Assembly (NCBI GenBank): GCA_965247035.1
Contig: CBDFGJ010000003.1
Coordinates: forward strand, 1,252,840-1,316,839
Reading direction: 5' to 3'
Source of the DNA: Candidatus Azophilus sp.
GTDB taxonomy: Bacteria > Pseudomonadota > Gammaproteobacteria > Pseudomonadales > Azotimanducaceae
DNA: 64,000 bases
The first letter of the stretch is position 1. Every line of letters begins with the position of its first letter. The notes under the pieces were generated by a model. It was not told the DNA's origin. It did not search any database and was given only the letters and a program-made list of their open reading frames with translations. Positions 28,149 to 38,835 of this stretch are shown here, piece by piece. Both the position numbers and the translations under genes were made by a program.

Positions 28149-29336
28149 ATGACTAACTCCATCTCCCACAGCCGCCGGCTCATCTCGCGGGCGTTTGTCG
28201 CCTGCGTCCTTCTGCGGGCCTGGCCGCGCAGGCACACGCCCAGGCCTGTCTGGCTTGGCTGTTTCGCCTGGCACCTTGTCGCCCGCGTTTGATCCTGACG
28301 TTATTGATTACAGCGTCCAGGTGGCTGGTGATGTGACATCAATCGAATTTACGCTAACTTCGGATACAGATATCACCGTGGATGGAGCAGGATTTACCAG
28401 TGGAGAGACCAAGTCATTCTCTTTTGGCGCTGACCTTAATACAAAAGATTTCGTCATTATTGTAGGCACTTTTTCCGGCACCCGAGGCCACTTCGTCACC
28501 CTGACCCGCGACACCGTAGATCTCCTCAACGGAGCCGGGTTTGAACACACCGGCGGTAAGAACAGGGCGATACGACCTATTTGAATCGTGGTGACAGCAT
28601 CACGGTATTCGTGCAGTCCGACGAATCGCTGCCTGCGAATTCCCTTGTGGATGTTGCCAGATTTACCTTTTCCGGCACCCCCTTCCCGGCGCAAAGTTTG
28701 CTGCCGGTGTCCGGCATCGCGAACCGATATTCGGCGACCCGTACAATCAGAAACAGTGACCACGGAGAGTCGCTAAGTTTAGTTGTTCGCGGTGTCAGGA
28801 ACGCTGATGGCAACCTGGTGACCGACCTTACTGTAGACCTCCAAACAAGGGTAACCATCGACACCCGCGCACCGGCGATTGAACTGGCAGGCAATTCAGC
28901 CGTGACCGTTGCCCATGGCGTCGAGTACTCCGATGATGGCGTGCGTGGGCTGGATACGGCGGCTGGCGAGCAACTGGAAACGGCTGTTGTCGGACCTGGC
29001 AGTGAGACCACAGTGAACACCCGCGTCGCCGGCGCCTACACCATCACCTACACCGCGACCGACCGCGCCGGCAATACCGACACGGAGACCCGCACCGTGA
29101 CCGTGTCCGACCCGCCAGCCGCGAAGCCGATTGCCGATGCGGGAGCCGATGTCACCCTGGCTACCAACGCGGAAATGACGCTGGACGGCTCCAGTAGCAA
29201 CAGTGTCGGTCAGACGATCAATTTCTATACCTGGACGCAGACCGTCGGCGATCAAGTCGACTTAGATGTCAACGCCTTGCGCCCGACCGCGACCTTCACC
29301 GCGCCGGTTGCGGCGGCGGCTTTGCCGCCGCTTTGA
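28149..29336 (+). pseudogene. Frameshifted, C-terminally truncated secreted adhesin fragment (signal peptide + cadherin-like beta-sandwich + Ig-like/DUF5011-like + partial PKD)
   Basis: The reading frame must change three times, near 28215, 28245 and 28575. The pieces are: MTNSISHSRRLISRAFVACVLL (frame 0); GLAAQAHAQA (frame 2); LSGLAVSPGTLSPAFDPDVIDYSVQVAGDVTSIEFTLT...FEHTGGKNRAIRP (frame 1, track ORF 28195..28584); and YLNRGDSITVFVQSDESL...TIDTRAPAIELAGNSAVTVAHGVEYSDDG...YTITYTATDRAGNTDTETRTVTV...PIADAGADVTLATNAEMTLDGSSS (frame 0, track ORF 28581..29336). The joined sequence is colinear with FTHTGGVEVGTTVFFNVGDTLTAFVNSDEAL... in the 2,909-aa protein. It ends inside the PKD domain. Confidence 0.7.
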
Positions 29337-29551
29337 GTCACACTAGGGCGTAACGACATTAAAAGCCTGGCAAAGCCGGACTTGGGCGGGCAACGATAAA
29401 TCGGGCGGGATTGACCACAGAGCCCCTCCCTGATGGTATTTTTTGCCAATTCTCTGTATTTTATGGGATTCAATACCCTGAACGCAGGTTCCATGCTGGT
29501 GTCAGTGCGGGTTGCCCAAACCAACTTCATTTACATTATGAGGCAAACATC

Positions 29552-29677
29552 GTGAACAAAATAACCACCGACATACACAAAACAATCACCAACATTGGTT
29601 TTTGCCTCGGTGCTACTGGCAGCGATGAGCGTCGCCCCCCCCCAGCCAGCCACGCAGCAGAGAGGCAAGTGCTATGA
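29552..29677 (+). other. Upstream leader ORF: degenerate, frameshifted copy of the downstream gene's start and signal peptide; its stop overlaps the main ATG (ctATGAat)
   Basis: gtgaacaaaataacc...aaaacaatcaccaacattggtttttgcctcggtgctactggcagcgatgagcgtcgcc aligns with the real 5' end atgaataaaacaatcacccaattcgttttcgccgcggcgttgctggtggcgatgctggcgtcaacc. Its stop TGA (29675-29677) overlaps ATG 29674-29676. It is in the same frame as track ORF 29411..29677. Confidence 0.6.
29635..29643. repeat. Homopolymeric C9 tract 31 nt upstream of the autotransporter start codon, inside the leader ORF
   Basis: Counted directly: gtcg CCCCCCCCC agcc. Confidence 0.95.
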
Positions 29678-32600
29678 ATAAAACAATCACCCAATTCGTT
29701 TTCGCCGCGGCGTTGCTGGTGGCGATGCTGGCGTCAACCGGCATCGCCCATGCTCAATCGGTAACTTACGCAGATGGCCAGACGGCAATCCGGGCAGACT
29801 CTTTTAGTATTCGCACTTCTGGAACCCAGACATCGGTAAACTTTTTCCCCCTCAAGACAGGAACATACACGGTTGTGGCGGGCGGACAGACCAAAAATGT
29901 AACGGTTACGGCAGATGACGCGGGTGACGAAGCAAGTATCGTATTTACTTTGGGGGATGCTGTTGTTGGTGATGCCGTCTTGTCATTTGGCAGCGTCGAG
30001 GTGGCAAGGCAGCGTATAGGGACACCCCCCCCGACCATCTCCCTGCGTGGTCCGTTCGCGGGTAACGCGCAGCGCATCACCAGAATTAGAGAGATAGATT
30101 TTGTTATAGCGGATGATTTTAATGGCGGCCGGCAGCCGGTCATAGACTACTGGGAATTATCCATCAATGGCGGTACTAATTACGATTTTACAAAGGTAAT
30201 CACGCCCTTCCGCCGCCCCAATATTGCCTTCACCCTGCCCGAAGGCAGATATGACGACGATCAGGTGCGAGTGCGCCAGAGCATAGATCAGGTTCTTTCC
30301 CCATTTGCCGGTCTTGACGCATTTATCTTTGATTCCACGCCGCCAGACATCACCCTGAAAGGTGACGCCAGGATTGTCCTGCAAGTGGGCGATACCTACG
30401 ACGACATGGGCGCCACCGTCACCGATAATCTGGATACCGACATCCAGTCCAGGTTGATGGTGGATAGCAGCGCAGTGGACACCAGCACCGCCGGCACCTA
30501 CACGGTTAGGTACAGCGCAACCGACCACACCGAGCACGGCGCGAATACTGGCCGGGCTACCCGCGAAGTCGTCGTGCAAGGTCAACTTGCCTTTGCCGTG
30601 GGCGGGGCACCCATGCTCACCAGCGATGGCGCGACGGTAGGGGGCGTAACCTTCGCCAAAGCCGGCGACATCCTGACCCTTGCCTTCACCACCAATCTGG
30701 CATTGGCAAGCACCCCAACCGTGACCATCTTCGTCGGTTCGTCCGGCCGGGGCGCCAGGGTGACCAAAGGCGCGGGCAATGCGTATAGCGCGACCTACAC
30801 GGTGGCCGCGGCGCATTTTCCGGACAGCGACGGCGTGGCGGCGCGGTATCACATTGACACAATGGTAGCCGCTGATGATGCCAGCAATACCTTTAACCCG
30901 CCTGGGGTTACCAGTGCGATTCTGGTTGATGTGGTCTCGCCGGTGGTGACCTTTCCCGAAATTGTCGGTCGTGGTGTGGTTGGCGATGAGCAAAGCCACA
31001 GCATCACCTTCTCCGAAGCGGTAACCGCGACGGTGGCTTCTTTCTCCAGTTCCACGGGCCTGATGGTGGATAGGGTGAGCGGTAGCGGTAGCGACACCCT
31101 TACCGTTGCCTACACCCCGAAAGCGGAAAGCTTCACCCTGGCCGTTAACCTCCGTGGCGTAACCGACCGGGCCGGCAACCGGGGGCCCAGCAGCAGAACG
31201 AGCCGGGGTGGCTTTGCGGACCCGGCGGTGCTTGGTCCGGCTCCGGGCATTGCCCTGGAGAGGGACACGGCTGCCGATGGTGCTGTTAATACGGACCGCC
31301 TCACCAGAAATAGAGGGATAGTCGTTACGCTGGCAAGCGATTTTGATACCAACAGGGACACCTGGGAATACTCCATCAATGGCGGTACCACCGATTACCT
31401 CCCCGGCACCGGCACCAGTTTCAGTTTATTACCCGCAGGCAGTGCCGCATATAGCGCCGACCAAGTGCGAGCGCGCCAGACCGTGGATGGCGTTGTTTCC
31501 GCATTTGCCGGTCTTGACGCATTTATCATTGATATTGATCCGCCGACGGCGAACCTCGGCAGCATTGCCGGTGCTGTGATTGACCGGGCCGGGCAGACGC
31601 ACGACATCACTTTCTCCGAGAATGTGGCCGGTTTGGCTGCGGGTGATTTCTCCGCTTCCACAGGTATTACGGTGACTGCTGTGAGCGGTAGCGATGGCGG
31701 TACTGATTACACCCTCACCTACACCGCGACTGCGGCAGCCTTCACTCTGCTCCTTAGCGCGGGTAGCGTGACCGACATCGCCGGCAATCTCGTTGTCGAG
31801 ACCAGCCTAGCCGGCACGGCTACGGCACCAGTCAACCAGAGGCCGACTGCCAATGCCGGGCCCGATCAACCTAATGCGGTTGTCAACCGGGAAGTAACCC
31901 TGAGCGGCTCCGGCGACGACCCCGATGGCGATAACAGTGCGCTGATTTATTTCTGGGGTCAGGCCAGCGGCCCGGATGTCGACTTGAGCAATGACGGCGT
32001 TGCTCGCCCGACCTTCACGCCTGCCAAGGCCGGGATTTATACCTTCGACTTGACCGTCATCGATGACGGCGGTGTCGCGCGGGGAACCACCGACAGGGTA
32101 ATCATCACCGTGAGTGCGGCGACTACCGACACCACCGCGCCGGTGATTACCTTCGACCGGTTTACACACACTGGTGGTGTAGAGGTTGGCACTACGGTCT
32201 TTTTTAATGTTGGTGACACCCTCACCGCGTTCGTGAACTCCGACGAAGCGCTTGCCGCCACGTCGCTTGAGGATGCTGCCTTTTTTGACTTTGACGGATC
32301 AGTACGCCCTGTGCAAGATCTGCTGCCGGTAGTCGGCGTCGCCAACCAATATAGTGCGACCTATACCATCAAACCTGAGGATAACGATGCAGGGCCACAA
32401 TTTAATGTTCGCGGTGTCACGGACACTGCCGACCCCGTGAACCCGGCACCTAATTTCAGACATCCTGTCGGAGCAGTGACTATCGACACCAGCGTGCCGG
32501 TCATCGCTCTGGAGGGCACTTCACCCGTTACCGTTGCCCACGGCGGCACTTACACCGAAGCGGAAGATGCGGGCATTAGTGGGGCGTCGCGGGGCGACAC

Positions 32601-35600
32601 TACGGCGATGACGACTACCGGACCCGACGCTATGGCAGTAAATGGCATAGCAGTGGACACCGACACCGCCGGCGACTACCTCATCACCTACATCGTGACC
32701 GACCGCGCCGGCAATGTCTCCAACACGCTGACCCGCACCGTGACCGTTGGCGCGGCACCCGTAGCCAACACCGCGCCGGTGGTCAGTGGCAATACAGCAC
32801 CGAATTATGCCGAGAACGCCGACGTGGCCACCCTGCCGGTGGCGACCTACGCCGCAACCGATGCCGAGAGCAACGCCTTCGCCTGGTCAGTCGCCGGCGC
32901 GGATGCGAATTTGTTTGCGATTGATGCGGATGGCGTATTGACTTTCAAGGCTTCGCCGAACTTTGAAGACGCGGCGGATGCTGACGGCGGCAACACATAC
33001 GAAATCACCATTATCGCCACCGAAACCGATGGCAACCCAAGCAACCTGCCAAGCGCACCGCTGATGGTTACGGTGACGGTTACCAATGTGGATGAAGCCG
33101 GCACGGTTATCATCAGCGGCACCGCCCAGGTTGGCGTGGAATTGACCGCCAGCGTGACCGACCCGGATGGCGCGGTTACTGATGCATTGTATCAATGGCG
33201 AAGCTCGGGAGCAGGCGGCGGCGTGGTCAGCGGTGACCCCAGAGTCAGCGCGACCTACCAGCCGGTGGCAGCCGATGTCGGCAGGACTCTGTCGGTCACC
33301 GTCGTCTATTCCGACCCGGTACCCGGTGGCAAGAACATCACCAGCGCGCCGACCGCCGCCGTGATTGCCGCGCCCGACACCACCGCGCCGATGGTTACCA
33401 TCCCCGCTCTGGGCGAATCCACGGCGGGTAATACGGCAAGCGTGAAAATTACCTTCGACGAGGCGGTTACCGGTTTGACGAGTGGCGATTTCACCGCTGA
33501 CAACGCCACGGTGAATAGCGTTAGCCCGGACAGCGGCTCCGACACCACCTACCTCGTCACCTATACCCCGGGCGCGGCGGGCGCGGTACGCCTGACTCTC
33601 ACCGCCGATAGCGTGTCCGACACCGCCAGTCCCACCCCGAACACCGGTCCCGCCAGCCCGGTAACCGCAACCGGCACTGCGGCGGCAGAGGCAACCGAAG
33701 ACACTACCAAACCACGCATCACTGCCACCATGACCATTGCCGGGCTCACCACCGCCGAGTTTGATGCGGACGAGTTCCGCATGGGCATTGCGAGATTGTT
33801 GAACGTGCGTTCCAGTGATGTGACCATCCTCAGTATCACCGCCGCTAGCGTGATCGTGGAGTATGAAGTAGTCACCACAGCGGACCAACTCGCTGCATTG
33901 GCAGCGACCTTGTCCGGCGCCAGCGCGTCGCAGTTACGCACCGCCAGCGGTCAAACTCTCCCCGGCACCGCGGTGGTGACCAACACCGAAGCGCAGACCC
34001 GCCAGCCGCCGGTTGCCCATGCCGGGTTTGATCAGCGGAATGTGGATACCGGCGCGACCGTGACCCTGGACGGCTCCAGAAGCACGGGCGATGATCTGAC
34101 TTACGAATGGACGGTGCCCACGGCATTAGGCGGGACTATCAACTTGAGCAGTACCACTGCCGTCCAGCCGACCTTCACCGCGCCGCCTCAAGCCAATGAC
34201 TTGATGTTCACCCTGACCGTTACCGATAATGATGGTGTTACCGCCACCGACACGGTAACCATCTTCGTAACCCCGGCGGACTCGTTTCGCATCGCCTTGG
34301 CTGATGACACCGGCATTGACGGCGATGGCATCACCAGCAATGGCGTGGTGAATGTGATGAATCTGCCCAGCGGAGGCACCTGGACATACTCCACCAATGG
34401 CGGCACCAGTTCCACCCCCGGCTCCGGCACCAGCTTCGATCTGGATGAAGGCGTGTATGACGCTGACGATGTGGTAGCCACTCTGGCTGGAGTTGGAGAG
34501 GGCGAGGACGAAACTGTCGAACTCGGTCCGGTTACCGTGGACAGCACCCCGCTGACGGTTGTGACCTTCGGCGCTATTGCCGCAGGCGTGATTGGCACGC
34601 CGCAGGAGCACGACATCATCTTCGCCGAAGCGGAGGACTTTGATCGCACCGACATCACCGCCGCAGGCGCCACGGTGAATCGGGTGACCAGCAACGATGG
34701 CATCACCCATACCATCAACTTCACCCCGAACGCGGCAGACTTCAGCCTGACCCTTGCCATGGACAGCGTGGTCGATGTCGCCGGCAACAGCGGTCCCGCG
34801 GCAGCGGCGGTCGCATCCGGCACCGCCACCGAAGCCCTTGCCTTTACCGTGGGAGAGGAACCCACGCTCACTAGCGATAACTCCATCAATAGTAATTACG
34901 CCAGAGACGGCGACACCCTGACCCTTGCCTTCACGCTCAATCAGGCAGTGGCAGCCCTCCCAGCCGTCACCATCGCCGGGGGGACTGCCACGGTGACAAA
35001 AGGCGCGGGCAATGATTACACTGCAACCTACACGGTGGTCGCGAATGATGTTACCGACAACACGTTGGTGGGTTATAACATTGACGCAATGGCCGCCGCC
35101 GATAATCTGGCAAATACGCTTGCCGCGACAGATGGCAGTACTGACATTCGAATTGATGTAACCGCGCCAACCGTGACCCTCGGCGCCATTACCGCAGGTG
35201 TGATTGACACCGAACAGACGCACGACATTACCTTCTCCGAGGCGGTAACCGGTTTGGCGGTGGGTGATTTCTCCGTTTCCAACAACATTGTGGCGTCCGG
35301 CGACCTCGTGGTGAATAGTGTGACCCCGGCCAGCGGCCCCAGCACCACCTACACCATCAGCATCACCCCGCGAGCGACAGCCTTCACCCTGGTCCTTGCC
35401 GCCGGCCAAGTAGCCGATGTCGCCGGCAACGCCGGTCCCGCGGTAGAGGCGAGCGCGAGCGGCACCGCCACCGAACCACCCAACCAGCCGCCGGTCGCCG
35501 ACGCCGGAGACAATCAGGATGTGAAGACCGGCGTGAGCGTGACCCTGAACGGCTCCCGCAGCAGCGACACCGATGGAACTATCGAGAGTTATGCTTGGGC

Positions 35601-38403
35601 GCATACCCAAACCGATGGCGCCACGCCTGCTCCGGCAGTTAATTTGACTGGTGCCAACCCCGCCAGCCCGACCTTCACCGCGCCGGCTACTGCCGGGACG
35701 CTAGTGTTCACCCTGACCGTCACCGATGATGATGGCGCCAGCCACACCGACACGGTAACCATCACCGTGTCTGAGTCAATGGACACAACCACGCCGGTGA
35801 TCACCCTTCTGGGGGACAGCCCCCTTGAGGTCGATCAGGGCGCCACCTACACCGACCCGGGCGCCACGGCGAGGGATGGCGGGGGTGGCCCTCTCACTGG
35901 CATCGTCGTTGGCGGCGACACGGTGGAGACCGACATGGTCGGCGAATACATCGTCACATATAATGTATTCGACAACGACGGCAATGCCGCCAGGACTGTT
36001 GCCCGCATCGTCCGCGTCGTCGAGCCGGACACGGTTCCCCCCGTGATCACCCTTCTGGGGGACAGCCCCCTTGAGGTCGATCAGGGCGCCACCTACACCG
36101 ACCCGGGCGCCACGGCGAGCGATGATCGGGATGACGATCTCAGCGCCGGCATCGTCGTTGGCGGCGACACGGTGGAGATCGACACTGTCGGCGAATACAC
36201 CGTCACCTATGATGTGTCCGACGCCGCCGGCAATGCCGCCGAGCAGGTCACCCGCATCGTCCGCGTCGTCCTGCTGGACACGGTTCCCCCCGTGATCACC
36301 CTTCTGGGGGACAGCCCCCTTGAGGTCGATCAGGGCGCCACCTACACCGACCCGGGGGCCACGGCGGGTGATGACCGGGATGGCGATCTCAGCAACCGCA
36401 TCGTCGTTGGCGGCGACACGGTGGAGACCGACACTGTCGGCGAATACACCGTCACCTATGATGTGTCCGACGCCGCCGGCAATGCCGCCGAGCAGGTCAC
36501 CCGCATTGTCCGCGTCGTCCTGCCGGACACGGTTGCCCCCGTGATCACCCTTCTGGGGGACAGCCCCCTTGAGGTCGATCAGGGCGCCACCTACACCGAC
36601 CCGGGGGCCACGGCGAGCGATGACCGGGATGGCGATCTCAGCGCCGGCATCGTCGTTGGCGGCGACACGGTGGAGACCGACACCGTCGGCGAATACGCCG
36701 TCACCTATGATGTGTCCGACGCCGCCGGCAATGCCGCCGAGCAGGCCACCCGCATCGTCCGCGTCGTCCTGCCGCCGGACACGGTTGCCCCCGTGATCAC
36801 CCTTCTGGGGGACAGCCCCCTTGAGGTCGGTCAGCGCGCCGCCTACACCGACCCGGGCGCCACGGCGAGCGATGACCGGGATGGCGACATCAGCGCCGGC
36901 ATCGTCGTTGGCGGCGATACGGTGGAGACCGACACCGCCGGCGAATACGCCGTCACCTATGATGTGTCCGACGCCGCCGGCAATGCCGCCGAGCAGGTCA
37001 CCCGCATCGTCCGCGTCGTCGTGGTGCGCGACCTTGATGCCTTGAACCGTGCGATTCTGCCCGAAGTGGCGCGCGACATAGCGGACCAGAACGTCAGCGC
37101 CATTGCGCGGCGCCTTGAGCAGGCGCGGCTGCCCTCGAGAGCCGCCGGCAGCGCCAGCCTCGGCGGCGCCTCCAGCCTGGCGGAGATCGCCAACTCCCAG
37201 GGACGCAGCATCGCCGATGACCGGTTTGACATGAAGCGGCTCCTGGGCAATTCCGATTTTGTCCTGCCGCTGAGCGCAGCCGGCGAAGGCGAAGCGGACG
37301 ACACCCAGCTGACCCTTTGGGGAGCGGGCGACTACCGCAACCTGAAAGGCGCCGATGGCGTGCGTTGGGACGGCGATCTGTTCAGCCTGCGAATGGGTCT
37401 GGATGTGCACCTGAATGAGAACACCATCGTTGGCGTATCCATCTCCGGGAGCCAAGCGAAGCTGGACTACACCAACCCCAGCATGGCCACCAGCGGCGAC
37501 TATGATCTGGATATGGCCAGTGTCCATCCTTATCTGGGCTGGGCTGCGGGAAGCATGGACTTCTGGGCGACCGCCGGCTACGGCAAGGGCGAACTGGAGA
37601 TCAGTGAAGACGGCGCGCAGACGGATATCCCCTCAAGCGACCTGAGCATGCAGACCTTGGCGCTGGGCGCTAACGGTGTGCTGATGGAAACCAACACCAC
37701 CACCCTGCTGCTCAAAACCGAGGCCTTGAGCACCGAACTGGAAGTGGATGCAAGTGAAGGGATAACGGCACTCACCCAGAAAGCCCACCGAGTGCGCATG
37801 ACCCTGGAAGCGATTCGCGGTTTCAGCCTGGATAGTGGCGCACGATTGGAAACCAGCCTGGAGGCCGGTTTGCGGTATGACGGCGGCGACGGCACGACCG
37901 GCACCGGCGCAGAGATTGGCGGCGGCCTGCGCTATGCGGGCCTTGGCGAGCGCCTGGTGATGGAAGGCAAGGCGCGGGCGCTGGTGGGCGGCAAGGGCGA
38001 TGCCGAGGAATGGGGGCTCAGCGGGCTGATCAAACTCAGCCCCTCGGCGAACGGGCGCGGCCTGTCCTTCAGCCTGGCGCCGGGTTATGGGGCGACCGCC
38101 AGCGGCGTGGAACGACTTTGGCAACAAGGGCTGGATGATGGCCTGGGGGCGCAGGGCGGTCAGGGCGGCAACAACTACAGCCCGAATCTGGACATCCGTT
38201 TGGATTACGGCATGGATGTTCCCGGGAGGCCTGGCCTCATGACGCCCTACACTGAATTCAGCCTTGGCGACAGGAACACCTATCGCCTGGGCCTGCAGTG
38301 GCGGCACAGCAAGTGGTTTGATCTGAAACTTGTCGGCGAGCGCGAAGAAAGCGGGACCACCGCTGAGCACCGCATCTACCTGAAGGGCGAGATAGCGTTC
38401 TAA
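29674..38403 (+). CDS. Giant autotransporter-type adhesin (2,909 aa): Sec signal peptide, multi-domain Ig-like/cadherin/PKD/DUF5011-like passenger, C-terminal outer-membrane beta-barrel
   Basis: The signal peptide is MNKTITQFVFAAALLVAMLASTGIAHA|QS. Ig-like modules carry the D.G..D.ITSNG and W.YS.NGG motifs. A cadherin repeat is present (YAENADVATLPVATYAATDAESNAFAWSVAGADANLFAIDADGVLTFKASPNFED...TVTNVDE). PKD-like units follow the pattern ANAGPDQ...TLSGSGDDPDGD. There are five tandem DUF5011-like repeats. The C-terminus (LTLWGAGDYRNL...YRLGLQWRHSKWFDLKLVGERE...IYLKGEIAF) has alternating-hydrophobic beta-strand patterns and a terminal aromatic residue, as in autotransporter barrels (PF03797-type). 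Confidence 0.9.
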   Translation: MNKTITQFVFAAALLVAMLASTGIAHAQSVTYADGQTAIRADSFSIRTSGTQTSVNFFPLKTGTYTVVAGGQTKNVTVTADDAGDEASIVFTLGDAVVGDAVLSFGSVEVARQRIGTPPPTISLRGPFAGNAQRITRIREIDFVIADDFNGGRQPVIDYWELSINGGTNYDFTKVITPFRRPNIAFTLPEGRYDDDQVRVRQSIDQVLSPFAGLDAFIFDSTPPDITLKGDARIVLQVGDTYDDMGATVTDNLDTDIQSRLMVDSSAVDTSTAGTYTVRYSATDHTEHGANTGRATREVVVQGQLAFAVGGAPMLTSDGATVGGVTFAKAGDILTLAFTTNLALASTPTVTIFVGSSGRGARVTKGAGNAYSATYTVAAAHFPDSDGVAARYHIDTMVAADDASNTFNPPGVTSAILVDVVSPVVTFPEIVGRGVVGDEQSHSITFSEAVTATVASFSSSTGLMVDRVSGSGSDTLTVAYTPKAESFTLAVNLRGVTDRAGNRGPSSRTSRGGFADPAVLGPAPGIALERDTAADGAVNTDRLTRNRGIVVTLASDFDTNRDTWEYSINGGTTDYLPGTGTSFSLLPAGSAAYSADQVRARQTVDGVVSAFAGLDAFIIDIDPPTANLGSIAGAVIDRAGQTHDITFSENVAGLAAGDFSASTGITVTAVSGSDGGTDYTLTYTATAAAFTLLLSAGSVTDIAGNLVVETSLAGTATAPVNQRPTANAGPDQPNAVVNREVTLSGSGDDPDGDNSALIYFWGQASGPDVDLSNDGVARPTFTPAKAGIYTFDLTVIDDGGVARGTTDRVIITVSAATTDTTAPVITFDRFTHTGGVEVGTTVFFNVGDTLTAFVNSDEALAATSLEDAAFFDFDGSVRPVQDLLPVVGVANQYSATYTIKPEDNDAGPQFNVRGVTDTADPVNPAPNFRHPVGAVTIDTSVPVIALEGTSPVTVAHGGTYTEAEDAGISGASRGDTTAMTTTGPDAMAVNGIAVDTDTAGDYLITYIVTDRAGNVSNTLTRTVTVGAAPVANTAPVVSGNTAPNYAENADVATLPVATYAATDAESNAFAWSVAGADANLFAIDADGVLTFKASPNFEDAADADGGNTYEITIIATETDGNPSNLPSAPLMVTVTVTNVDEAGTVIISGTAQVGVELTASVTDPDGAVTDALYQWRSSGAGGGVVSGDPRVSATYQPVAADVGRTLSVTVVYSDPVPGGKNITSAPTAAVIAAPDTTAPMVTIPALGESTAGNTASVKITFDEAVTGLTSGDFTADNATVNSVSPDSGSDTTYLVTYTPGAAGAVRLTLTADSVSDTASPTPNTGPASPVTATGTAAAEATEDTTKPRITATMTIAGLTTAEFDADEFRMGIARLLNVRSSDVTILSITAASVIVEYEVVTTADQLAALAATLSGASASQLRTASGQTLPGTAVVTNTEAQTRQPPVAHAGFDQRNVDTGATVTLDGSRSTGDDLTYEWTVPTALGGTINLSSTTAVQPTFTAPPQANDLMFTLTVTDNDGVTATDTVTIFVTPADSFRIALADDTGIDGDGITSNGVVNVMNLPSGGTWTYSTNGGTSSTPGSGTSFDLDEGVYDADDVVATLAGVGEGEDETVELGPVTVDSTPLTVVTFGAIAAGVIGTPQEHDIIFAEAEDFDRTDITAAGATVNRVTSNDGITHTINFTPNAADFSLTLAMDSVVDVAGNSGPAAAAVASGTATEALAFTVGEEPTLTSDNSINSNYARDGDTLTLAFTLNQAVAALPAVTIAGGTATVTKGAGNDYTATYTVVANDVTDNTLVGYNIDAMAAADNLANTLAATDGSTDIRIDVTAPTVTLGAITAGVIDTEQTHDITFSEAVTGLAVGDFSVSNNIVASGDLVVNSVTPASGPSTTYTISITPRATAFTLVLAAGQVADVAGNAGPAVEASASGTATEPPNQPPVADAGDNQDVKTGVSVTLNGSRSSDTDGTIESYAWAHTQTDGATPAPAVNLTGANPASPTFTAPATAGTLVFTLTVTDDDGASHTDTVTITVSESMDTTTPVITLLGDSPLEVDQGATYTDPGATARDGGGGPLTGIVVGGDTVETDMVGEYIVTYNVFDNDGNAARTVARIVRVVEPDTVPPVITLLGDSPLEVDQGATYTDPGATASDDRDDDLSAGIVVGGDTVEIDTVGEYTVTYDVSDAAGNAAEQVTRIVRVVLLDTVPPVITLLGDSPLEVDQGATYTDPGATAGDDRDGDLSNRIVVGGDTVETDTVGEYTVTYDVSDAAGNAAEQVTRIVRVVLPDTVAPVITLLGDSPLEVDQGATYTDPGATASDDRDGDLSAGIVVGGDTVETDTVGEYAVTYDVSDAAGNAAEQATRIVRVVLPPDTVAPVITLLGDSPLEVGQRAAYTDPGATASDDRDGDISAGIVVGGDTVETDTAGEYAVTYDVSDAAGNAAEQVTRIVRVVVVRDLDALNRAILPEVARDIADQNVSAIARRLEQARLPSRAAGSASLGGASSLAEIANSQGRSIADDRFDMKRLLGNSDFVLPLSAAGEGEADDTQLTLWGAGDYRNLKGADGVRWDGDLFSLRMGLDVHLNENTIVGVSISGSQAKLDYTNPSMATSGDYDLDMASVHPYLGWAAGSMDFWATAGYGKGELEISEDGAQTDIPSSDLSMQTLALGANGVLMETNTTTLLLKTEALSTELEVDASEGITALTQKAHRVRMTLEAIRGFSLDSGARLETSLEAGLRYDGGDGTTGTGAEIGGGLRYAGLGERLVMEGKARALVGGKGDAEEWGLSGLIKLSPSANGRGLSFSLAPGYGATASGVERLWQQGLDDGLGAQGGQGGNNYSPNLDIRLDYGMDVPGRPGLMTPYTEFSLGDRNTYRLGLQWRHSKWFDLKLVGEREESGTTAEHRIYLKGEIAF
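30025..30032. repeat. Homopolymeric C8 tract inside the autotransporter coding region (codons ~118-120, GTPPPT)
   Basis: Counted directly: gaca CCCCCCCC gacc. Confidence 0.95.
35782..37020 (+). repeat. Five in-frame tandem repeats (246/249/249/252-bp spacing) each encoding a DUF5011-like Ig domain
   Basis: Repeat starts (GAC of D-T-[TV]-x-P-V-I-T-L-L-G-D-S-P-L-E-V) are at 35782, 36028, 36277, 36526 and 36778. Copies 2-5 are near-identical at nucleotide level (PVITLLGDSPLEVDQGATYTDPGATASDDRDGDLSAGIVVGGDTVETDTVGEYTVTYDVSDAAGNAAEQVTRIVRVV). The periodic off-frame ORFs in the track at 35825, 36071, 36320, 36569 and 36821 mirror this. Confidence 0.95.
37309..38400 (+). other. Autotransporter translocator (beta-barrel) domain of the 2,909-aa protein, preceded by a helical linker (37021-37308)
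   Basis: It runs from LTLWGAGDYRNLKG to the terminal ...EHRIYLKGEIAF. Amphipathic strand patterns are repeated, Gly and aromatic residues are abundant, and the last residue is Phe. The linker is VVVRDLDALNRAILPEVARDIADQNVSAIARRLEQARL. Confidence 0.8.
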
Positions 38404-38511: not shown

Positions 38512-38543
38512 AGCGAGGCTCCGCCCGGGGCTTCGCTTTTTTT
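38512..38543 (+). terminator. Rho-independent terminator after the autotransporter gene
   Basis: Stem AGCGAGGC (38512-38519) pairs with GCTTCGCT (38530-38537), including one G-U pair. The loop is GC-rich and a T7 run follows (38537-38543). Confidence 0.7.
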
Positions 38544-38615: not shown

Positions 38616-38644
38616 TTGCTAATTCCATGGTGTTTTTGTATAAA
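38616..38644 (+). promoter_or_regulatory. Candidate sigma70 promoter for the giant ORF (TTGCTA-17-TATAAA); a second candidate TTGCAT-16-TAGATT lies at 38649-38676
   Basis: The hexamers and spacers were read directly from the sequence, in the 430-bp intergenic region between the terminator and ATG 38832. Confidence 0.4.
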
Positions 38645-38727
38645 CGCCTTGCATGCAGGCTATCCGCCGCTAGATTTGGGCAGACCAACAATCAGCTTTG
38701 TTCGTGCATAGTAGGGACCAAAGCATC

Positions 38728-38835
38728 ATGAACAAGCTAATCACCCGATTCGCTTTTGCCTCCGCGTTACCGGTAGCAATAGGTATCCCCCCGCACACAC
38801 AGCGGGGGCCAGGCATCATGAAAAAAGTGCTATGA
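38728..38835 (+). other. Upstream 35-codon leader ORF resembling a decayed signal peptide; its stop overlaps the giant ORF start (ctATGAac)
   Basis: ATG 38728 opens MNKLITRFAFASALPVAIGIPPHTQRGPGIMKKVL*, with TGA at 38833-38835 overlapping ATG 38832-38834. The N-terminus MNKLITRFAFASAL parallels the real MNKIVTQFALVSAL. It contains a C6 tract, (CA)4 and a G5 tract. Confidence 0.6.

Follow-up and report, generated by a model that had tools for sequence, protein, structure and literature searches.

The window analysed here is a stretch of 64,000 nucleotides (C3:1252840-1316839) from the 3.5-Mb genome of Candidatus Azophilus sp., which is in three contigs, and the subject is the 5' ends of two giant adhesin genes that it contains, genes 1 and 2. 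Both genes encode giant secreted proteins with Ig-like, PKD or fibronectin type III domains and canonical Sec signal peptides, and each is preceded by a short leader open reading frame (ORF), at 29552-29677 and 38728-38835, respectively. These leaders had been described in a first-pass annotation of the sequence, the coordinates and sequences of which proved accurate. Both have their own Shine-Dalgarno sequence and start, and both end in a TGA that overlaps the adhesin's ATG, the junction reading gtgctATGAa at the two genes, as had been reported. Absent from that annotation was a poly-C tract inside each leader (C9 at 29635-29643 and C6 at 38787-38792), an element that is hypervariable among relatives. 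It is this poly-C run, and not the ATGA overlap, that varies and that is probably regulatory, and the ATGA-terminated leader, rather than being a conserved device, is the form taken locally, with short tracts, by a poly-C 5' module that is stacked and horizontally shared.

The elements of genes 1 and 2 and of their leader regions are on the + strand. Upstream of gene 1, the weak hexamer TTCAAT (29469-29474) is a putative -10 element by its alignment with a TATAAT/TACAAT box that is conserved 5' of the leader in relatives. Leader ORF 1 is preceded, at a distance of 8 nt, by the Shine-Dalgarno sequence GAGG (29540-29543), which is kept as GAGG or AAGG in relatives, and it extends over 41 codons (VNKITTDIHKTITNIGFCLGATGSDERRPPPASHAAERQVL) from GTG 29552 to TGA 29675-29677; its DNA derives from that of the start and signal peptide, from which it has diverged and been frameshifted, and orthologous leaders are known. 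Within it lie a single copy of a 33-nt unit, CTCGGYGCTRCTGGCARCGATGAGCRTCGCCCC (29606-29638), that derives from the signal-peptide hydrophobic region and occurs in relatives in 1 (two loci), 3, 4 or 8 tandem copies; the C9 tract (29635-29643), represented at the same position by C8 to C26 in relatives; and, 3' of the tract, the micro-repeat (AGCC)2 (29644-29651), the copy number of which contributes to setting the reading register and which, in the alignment, is reduced to one copy in locus L173 and missing from L169, L170 and L172. The Shine-Dalgarno sequence of the real start, GAGAGG (29660-29665), follows, and then the ATG at 29674 of gene 1 (29674-38403), a secreted adhesin of 2909 amino acids with Ig-like and PKD domains and the Sec signal peptide MNKTITQFVFAAALLVAMLASTGIAHA, cleaved before Q. 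The coding sequence of gene 1 includes a further tract, C8 at 30025-30032, which encodes PPP at about codons 118-120 and where slippage would truncate the adhesin; the sequence differs at this site in L016-L019, which have no run longer than C7 in their first 3 kb. On the 5' side of gene 1 stands a frameshifted paralogue that begins (28149-28250) with a type B signal peptide (MTNSISHSRRLISRAFVACVLL..) and has neither leader nor C tract; two signal-peptide families thus occur on related adhesin bodies within this genome.

A terminator-like hairpin with a T-run lies 3' of gene 1 (38512-38537), from which it would follow that gene 2 is transcribed, together with its leader, separately from gene 1. 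The candidate promoter of gene 2 (38616-38644; TTGCTA, a 17-nt spacer and TATAAA) is proposed from its alignment with the conserved box of the relatives. Leader ORF 2, for which L179 and L182 have orthologous leaders, has the Shine-Dalgarno sequence AGGGA (38713-38717) 10 nt 5' of its ATG and comprises 35 codons (MNKLITRFAFASALPVAIGIPPHTQRGPGIMKKVL) between ATG 38728 and TGA 38833-38835. Its C6 tract (38787-38792) corresponds to C18 and C20 in homologous leaders and to C7 in a copy on C1 of this genome, and it is part of a hairpin, CCCCCGC-ACACACA-GCGGGGG (38788-38808), in which the C tract faces a G run; the 76-nt stretch has a predicted folding energy of -22.9 kcal/mol (z = -3.2), and none of 200 shuffles was as stable. 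In frame with leader 2 is a mini-ORF, ATGAAAAAAGTGCTATGA (MKKVL-stop; 38818-38835), which likewise ends in ATGA and is homologous to the main start of L179; it brings the stacked starts of gene 2 to three (38728, 38818 and 38832). The last of these opens gene 2 proper (38832-64000), which leaves the window, measures 9836 amino acids in the genome when counted from this ATG, has the signal peptide MNKIVTQFALVSALLVAMMASMGTAHA, cleaved before Q, and has no Shine-Dalgarno sequence within 5-13 nt of its ATG.

Local alignment of each leader with the real 5' end of its gene gave scores of 46 and 41, compared with 14-15 +/- 2.2 for shuffled sequences, none of 2000 of which did as well, bearing out the earlier view that the leaders are copies of the starts that they precede. 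Leader 1 is frameshifted, its hydrophobic LVFASVLLAAMSVA stretch falling in the +1 frame relative to the signal-peptide frame, and leader 2 follows the signal-peptide frame for about 18 codons, beyond which come the C tract and divergence. Recurrence at two paralogues had been offered as a reason to suspect function. The arrangement is present at both genes, but leader and start of gene 1, taken together as a unit, can be aligned throughout with their counterparts at gene 2 (74% identity, about 180 nt), and the two therefore share one ancestral unit and are not independent recurrences. The overlap itself is automatic, because a Met-Asn start (ATG AAY) contains ATGA for any upstream ORF in that frame, and an open leader frame is weak evidence when taken alone, since stop codons are rare here in all frames.

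Further copies of the unit occur in this genome. A third tandem adhesin gene, gene 3, begins at C3:1321609, about 4.8 kb past the end of the window, and has the upstream region, leader and start of gene 2 at 96% identity, including an identical copy of leader 2, the C6 tract and the ATGA overlap; gene 3 stops at codon 100 and is fragmented thereafter, a pseudogene with an intact 5' module. The copy on C1, which sits before a 9360-codon ORF, is 88% identical to the gene 2 intergenic region and leader as far as the C tract, where the homology ends; its leader begins with ATA and has a C7 tract, the relic being in frame, and a different signal peptide, MTHPLPHTRRLISRAFIACALLLGLAAQAQA, follows at the real start. 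The two other giant genes on C1, of type B, share the promoter-like box and contain extra start relics such as ATGAACCAATGA. The mosaic 5' module is thus present at four loci in this genome, a fifth sharing the signal-peptide DNA only. By these alignments, the 5' ends of this adhesin family are stacked and exchanged. The suggestion in the first-pass annotation that the leaders could be the footprint of repeated 5'-end replacement by recombination is sustained both by the mosaic module at many loci and by the C1 homology that terminates at the poly-C tract.

Leader DNA of the gene 2 type was not found in 60 phylogenetic relatives, nor that of the gene 1 type in 40, 24 genomes of the same genus being among those searched, and the module is therefore not vertically inherited. 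Instead, five unrelated sponge-symbiont genomes have it, at 18 loci between them, as does a single ENA metagenome contig, the five genomes being labelled Ca. Poriferihabitaceae, Ca. Spongiihabitans, Nitrospinales, Halieaceae and Ca. Azotimanducaceae. The RpoB proteins of these five hosts are 54-74% identical to that of this genome, a same-genus genome giving 85%, and yet the 5' module, from about -230 to +700, is 87-95% identical to that of the window (compared at 29440-30400), while the adhesin genes with their 5' modules (L016-L019, L169-L178) are 97-100% identical over most of their length across those genomes, which bear the labels of different families or phyla. Such identity in the face of RpoB divergence means that the module is horizontally shared, and it indicates that the giant adhesin genes have been transferred recently within sponge microbiomes. 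A scan of metagenome contigs for AAGTGCTATGAAYAAAAYA returned 69 matches, none of them related, and an exact-protein look-up of gene 1 found no match on record. Behind some modules the adhesin ORF is broken early, after 54 codons in L171, 33 in L173, 78 in L182 and 218 in L187; in L171 and L173 the break falls at a short C or A run and may represent decay, a further switch or an assembly error.

Examination of 19 loci from relatives revealed a recurring order of elements. The module begins with a TATAAT-like box inside GTATAATGCCCCGAATGCAGG, about 80 nt 3' of which are a good Shine-Dalgarno sequence and a ATGAACAAA... start, followed by a partial copy of the signal peptide. In leaders of the gene 1 type there are then one to eight tandem 33-nt units derived from the signal-peptide hydrophobic region. 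Next comes an uninterrupted poly-C tract (C8, C9, C10 or C16-C28 in relatives), sometimes with AGCC or AC repeats behind it, and the module ends with a Shine-Dalgarno sequence, either AGAGAGG or a run of G, and then AAGTGCT before the real ATG. Starts are stacked two to seven deep, the extreme being L180, where positions 630-1010 hold seven in-frame ATGAACAAA starts that result from tandem repetition of a unit of about 42 nt containing CCGAGGCCAAGTGCTATGAACAAA. At the other extreme, L183 and L184 have no second start, and their tracts, C19 and C15, lie within a single signal peptide (MNKIITQFVFASALLVAISV-Pn-..GINTAHA/Q); this is probably the ancestral state, and both adhesins are out of frame as assembled. 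The leader copy is missing from L174 and L178, the latter still having a C22 tract, and the original start has been lost from L171. Nevertheless, the leader Shine-Dalgarno sequence and start are retained in 13 of the 15 loci that have both a leader and a second start, and pure C16-C28 tracts persist at many stacked loci. At L185 and L186, adhesin paralogues of the Ca. Azotimanducaceae genome with leader tracts of C20 and C28, there are also poly-G tracts, of about G23 (L185, approximately 480-505) and about G48 (L186, approximately 470-520), some 45-60 nt 5' of a TATACAAT box.

Long G/C runs are uncommon in the genome of the window. Runs of at least 8 number 39, where about 278 would be expected, an approximately sevenfold depletion, and C9 is one of only 17 runs of at least 9 in the 3.5 Mb; because of this genome-wide depletion, the C9 tract before an adhesin gene stands out. 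In relatives the tract varies on a background of near-identity. Thus, L016 and L017 are 100% identical in coding DNA from about +500 to +2000 and 96-99% identical in the first 500 nt after the ATG, while the 300 nt upstream are only 92-95% identical and the tracts are C9 and C26. L016, L017 and L019, with coding DNA 97-100% identical over most of its length, have tracts of C9, C26 and C21 and 3, 3 and 8 copies of the repeat, and tract length differs likewise between L185 (C20) and L186 (C28). Since the tract and 5' region differ where the coding DNA is identical, both change much faster than by point substitution, and in these comparisons the rapid change is the signature of slippage plus recombination.

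A change in tract length alters the register of the leader and the position of its stop, the adhesin's own start lying downstream. Register was counted over 16 5' regions from this genome, the five sponge-symbiont genomes and the metagenome contig, with register 0 meaning a leader in frame with the main ORF, register 1 the frame of the ATGA stop, and register 2 the third frame. Four loci are in register 0 (L169, L172, L186 and the C1 copy of this genome), seven in register 1 (window gene 1, window gene 2, which is equivalent to gene 3, L170, L171, L173, L176 and L187) and five in register 2 (L175, L177, L179, L182 and L185). Even within register 1, the leaders of L171 and L176 end not at ATGA but at a TAA 5 nt 5' of the ATG. 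Orthologous trios with near-identical flanks differ, L169, L170 and L172 being in registers 0, 1 and 0 and L175, L176 and L177 in registers 2, 1 and 2. The first-pass annotation had proposed to look in other genomes for conservation of the leader and ATGA arrangement upstream of homologous adhesins; the overlap is not maintained among orthologues.

The leader peptide also varies freely. Among five leaders of the gene 1 type, 17 of 87 columns are variable, the substitutions are distributed 9:4:4 over codon positions 1:2:3, and 11 of 14 variable codons are nonsynonymous, while substitutions in the real signal peptide are distributed 3:4:7. Leaders 1 and 2 have no peptide in common beyond MNK.IT and VL-stop and are read in different frames with respect to the ancestral signal peptide. 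By these counts, the leader peptide is without purifying selection, and unconstrained and unshared peptides argue against an arrest or sensor function.

At the level of RNA, a conserved TATAAT-like box about 80 nt 5' of the leader start in most copies places the leader within the predicted transcript. An Rfam scan of 28.5-39.5 kb (E <= 1) found no riboswitch or known leader RNA, yielding a manganese riboswitch fragment at chance level on the minus strand in gene 2, and a terminator scan found nothing between leader and gene at either site, the sole candidate being 38512-38537; the hairpin at 38788-38808 has no T-run behind it. The lack of an Rfam family and of a terminator between leader and gene argues against classical attenuation. 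Some folds would hide the ribosome binding site: in all four G-run-type relatives folded, the minimum-energy structure pairs the C tract with the G-run Shine-Dalgarno sequence, and at gene 1 the Shine-Dalgarno region (GAGAGG, GAGGCAA) pairs with the leader segment TTGCCTC (29602-29608), although this fold falls short of significance (z = -1.5). Such masking by RNA pairing may be a contributor. The two window genes differ in the extent to which their starts might depend on what lies upstream, the ATG of gene 2 having no Shine-Dalgarno sequence and the stable (z = -3.2) hairpin just before it, while gene 1 owns GAGAGG.

The reading that we favor, with a probability of roughly 0.6, is that the leaders are stacked 5' modules, brought together by recombination, which form a hypermutable upstream ORF whose ATGA ending is one of three registers. 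The homology of leader and start, the stacking, the spread of the module, the variation in tract and repeat length, the changes of register between orthologues and the unconstrained peptide can all be read directly from the aligned sequences. The leader ORF is the front half of an older module, with its promoter, Shine-Dalgarno sequence, MNK start, partial signal peptide and poly-C tract, behind which recombination or tandem duplication has placed a second complete Shine-Dalgarno sequence, start and signal peptide. In the simplest form, that of L183 and L184, the tract in a single signal peptide corresponds to the classical slipped-strand on/off switch, whereas in the window, with the tract in an upstream ORF, its length and that of the small neighboring repeats set the register in which ribosomes translating the leader would arrive at the real start. 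Transcripts would start at the conserved box, and ribosomes would load at the leader Shine-Dalgarno sequence and read the C tract as poly-Pro. In register 1 they would terminate on the UGA within AUGA or, in GGTAAG variants, on a UAA that lies 5 nt upstream, which may lead to reinitiation or to unmasking of the Shine-Dalgarno sequence; in register 0 an in-frame fusion would bury the signal peptide; and in register 2 translation would stop two codons inside the gene or continue out of frame far into it. Both window genes happen to sit in the ATGA register.

The steps of this scheme that concern expression are held less firmly. We infer that the leader is transcribed and translated, that the tract slips within populations, and that register changes adhesin output through reinitiation, Shine-Dalgarno unmasking, occlusion or a buried signal peptide; given the stacking and the register-setting tract, that transcripts start at the box, that the leader is translated through the tract and that output depends on register would all be true together at about even odds. 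A bolder extension is tentative and rather unlikely as a whole, namely that this is a new phase-variation switch, in which a poly-C upstream ORF made from the gene's own signal peptide sets three heritable states of adhesin expression, by fusion that buries the signal peptide, by reinitiation at AUGA or by out-of-frame occlusion; pairing of the C tract with the Shine-Dalgarno sequence or Rho loading on untranslated poly-C might add to the effect, and the whole cassette would spread among unrelated sponge symbionts, and from one adhesin body to another, through horizontal transfer and recombination.

Several observations weigh against the proposal of a register-setting leader. The real starts own complete signal peptides, and gene 1 a Shine-Dalgarno sequence as well, so that expression could ignore the leader. 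A strict sigma-70 scan called no promoter at either leader site, the TTGCTA-TATAAA site of gene 2 included, and, except at gene 2, the folds that mask the Shine-Dalgarno sequence are no better than those of dinucleotide shuffles. The window tracts are short: by the usual definition of a contingency locus, a homopolymer of about 8 or more at a surface-protein gene, C9 is long enough, but C6 is under the threshold and shorter than tracts that are generally regarded as strongly mutable, and the tracts of genes 2 and 3 in this genome do not differ, both being C6. Finally, homopolymers of at least 15 may be off by one in long-read assemblies, which makes the register of long-tract loci uncertain, although the short-tract loci alone (C6-C10) already give registers 0 and 1.

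Some of these points are shared by the most serious alternative, which is that the leader is a neutral scar, an old phase-variable start whose C tract and ATGA now lie in the 5' untranslated region without effect on expression; the new start may, in a variant of this idea, have been selected for freeing the gene from the switch. Although less probable than the register-setting leader, this account deserves real weight, as the peptide is unconstrained (9:4:4), register looks random (4:7:5), L174 and L178 are leaderless, the C1 copy has ATA for a start, L171 has lost its original start, and gene 1 has a good Shine-Dalgarno sequence of its own. The window tracts, the shortest in the set (C6-C9), are also as expected of tracts that contract in the absence of selection. 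Not readily accommodated are the pure, uninterrupted C16-C28 tracts at many stacked loci, the 13 of 15 loci that keep the leader Shine-Dalgarno sequence and start, and the leader DNA itself, about as well conserved as real signal-peptide DNA across hosts with 54-74% RpoB identity. Gene 2, the real ATG of which is without a Shine-Dalgarno sequence, likewise fits poorly with a leader that has no effect.

The first-pass annotation had raised termination-reinitiation coupling as a function, and in its strong form this becomes a dedicated ATGA device, wherein the leader ORF would be maintained for the sake of a stop that delivers ribosomes to the overlapping real ATG. Overlaps at genes 1, 2 and 3 here and in L170, L173 and L187 are what such a device would produce, as is a gene 2 that lacks the Shine-Dalgarno sequence with which the leaders are well provided. 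We nevertheless consider the device improbable, for any gene that begins Met-Asn acquires ATGA automatically, register 1 accounts for only 7 of 16 loci (two of these ending earlier, at TAA), near-identical orthologues are fused in frame or are in the third frame, two homologues are leaderless, and one has an ATA start.

The other function that had been raised, a regulatory leader peptide, fares worse still. A sequence-specific peptide of the SecM secretion-monitoring or arrest type, or one serving classical attenuation, might be suspected from leaders that start like signal peptides and from a C tract that encodes Pro runs (PPP; IPP..GPG), which can stall ribosomes, but the leaders share only MNK.IT and VL-stop, their substitutions (9:4:4) are mostly nonsynonymous, and there is neither an intrinsic terminator between leader and gene nor an Rfam match, leaving this a very improbable explanation. 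A SecM-like arrest peptide was rejected for want of peptide conservation. Equally improbable is an assembly artefact, in which C9 is really C10 and the gene starts at the upstream GTG with no separate leader: one more C would indeed fuse leader 1 to gene 1, and homopolymers are the usual site of error in long-read assemblies, but the downstream ATG has a complete signal peptide with an AHA/Q cleavage site and, at gene 1, a Shine-Dalgarno sequence, a fused protein would have 41 residues, most of them hydrophilic, in front of that signal peptide and so would bury it, and the two-start architecture is seen again in six other assemblies.

The arrangement would belong with the simple-repeat contingency loci, its repeat being placed in an upstream ORF derived from a signal peptide. 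A close parallel to the register-setting leader is pil1 of Streptococcus gallolyticus, where a repeat in a leader-peptide ORF was shown experimentally to control a pilus adhesin, with a terminator as read-out (Danne et al. 2014, PMC3894217). In both systems the target is a surface adhesin, the simple repeat lies within a short upstream leader ORF rather than in the adhesin gene or its promoter, and repeat number shifts the place where leader translation ends, here the register and stop position. The pil1 repeat, however, is the pentanucleotide GCAGA, acting on a premature terminator that is melted by ribosomes, whereas the window has poly-C with 33-nt and AGCC/AC repeats and no terminator 3' of the leader; furthermore, its leader has arisen by copying and divergence from the start and signal peptide of the very gene that it precedes, and any switching effect is a predicted one.

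The pilC gene of Neisseria has a G-tract in its signal-peptide coding region. The CTCTT repeats of Neisseria opa are likewise inside the signal-peptide coding region (PMC3960869). L183 and L184 resemble both, in that the tract lies between the hydrophobic core and the cleavage site and its length decides the adhesin frame. The window tracts, by contrast, precede the functional ATG and belong to a relic signal peptide, and such a tract cannot frameshift the adhesin itself because a second complete start lies downstream. In lic1 of Haemophilus influenzae, CAAT repeats form a three-state translational switch with several starts upstream of the repeat reading into the same gene. Common to both are three registers, the outputs of which may differ, and the presence of alternative starts near the repeat, but in the window the functional start is downstream of the repeat.

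Bordetella fim genes have a poly-C tract in the promoter. The same is true of Neisseria opc (PMC3960869). Although here too a poly-C tract of variable length stands just 5' of a surface-protein gene, the opc and fim tracts set the -35/-10 spacing, while the window tract is in an ORF, about 150-160 nt 3' of the predicted -10 and 24-39 nt 5' of the ATG. A role of the poly-C tract as a -35/-10 spacer was considered and rejected on account of these distances and of the absence of a -10-like hexamer after the tract. Lastly, ATGA-overlapped, translationally coupled gene pairs occur in bacterial operons. The window shares with them an upstream stop that overlaps the next start by ATGA and, at gene 2, a start without its own Shine-Dalgarno sequence, but it differs in that orthologues do not keep the overlap and no conserved product is encoded upstream of it.

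If the tract does switch expression, uncultured sponge symbionts would vary giant adhesins by the contingency-locus logic of mucosal pathogens, with the switch unusually located in an upstream ORF of signal-peptide origin. Full-text literature searching found no description of homopolymer phase variation in sponge symbionts. The occurrence of a shared 5' cassette on different adhesin bodies, in bacteria with 54-74% RpoB identity to this genome, suggests that front ends for expression and secretion are passed horizontally, ready-made, within the sponge microbiome. There is also a consequence for annotation, as start codons will be miscalled whenever the leader is in frame, for example in L169, L172 and L186.

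Long outlier G/C runs of this genome include those at C1:1324313 (C13), C2:397379 (G16), C1:1584587 (C16) and C3:217866 (C14). Two outlier runs, each at most 90 nt from where a large ORF (1285 or 1622 codons) has its 5' edge, are candidates for further contingency loci. The C13 run at C1:1324313 and the G16 run at C2:397379 are at the 5' edges of large ORFs, in a census pattern that is not clean enough to serve as a test.

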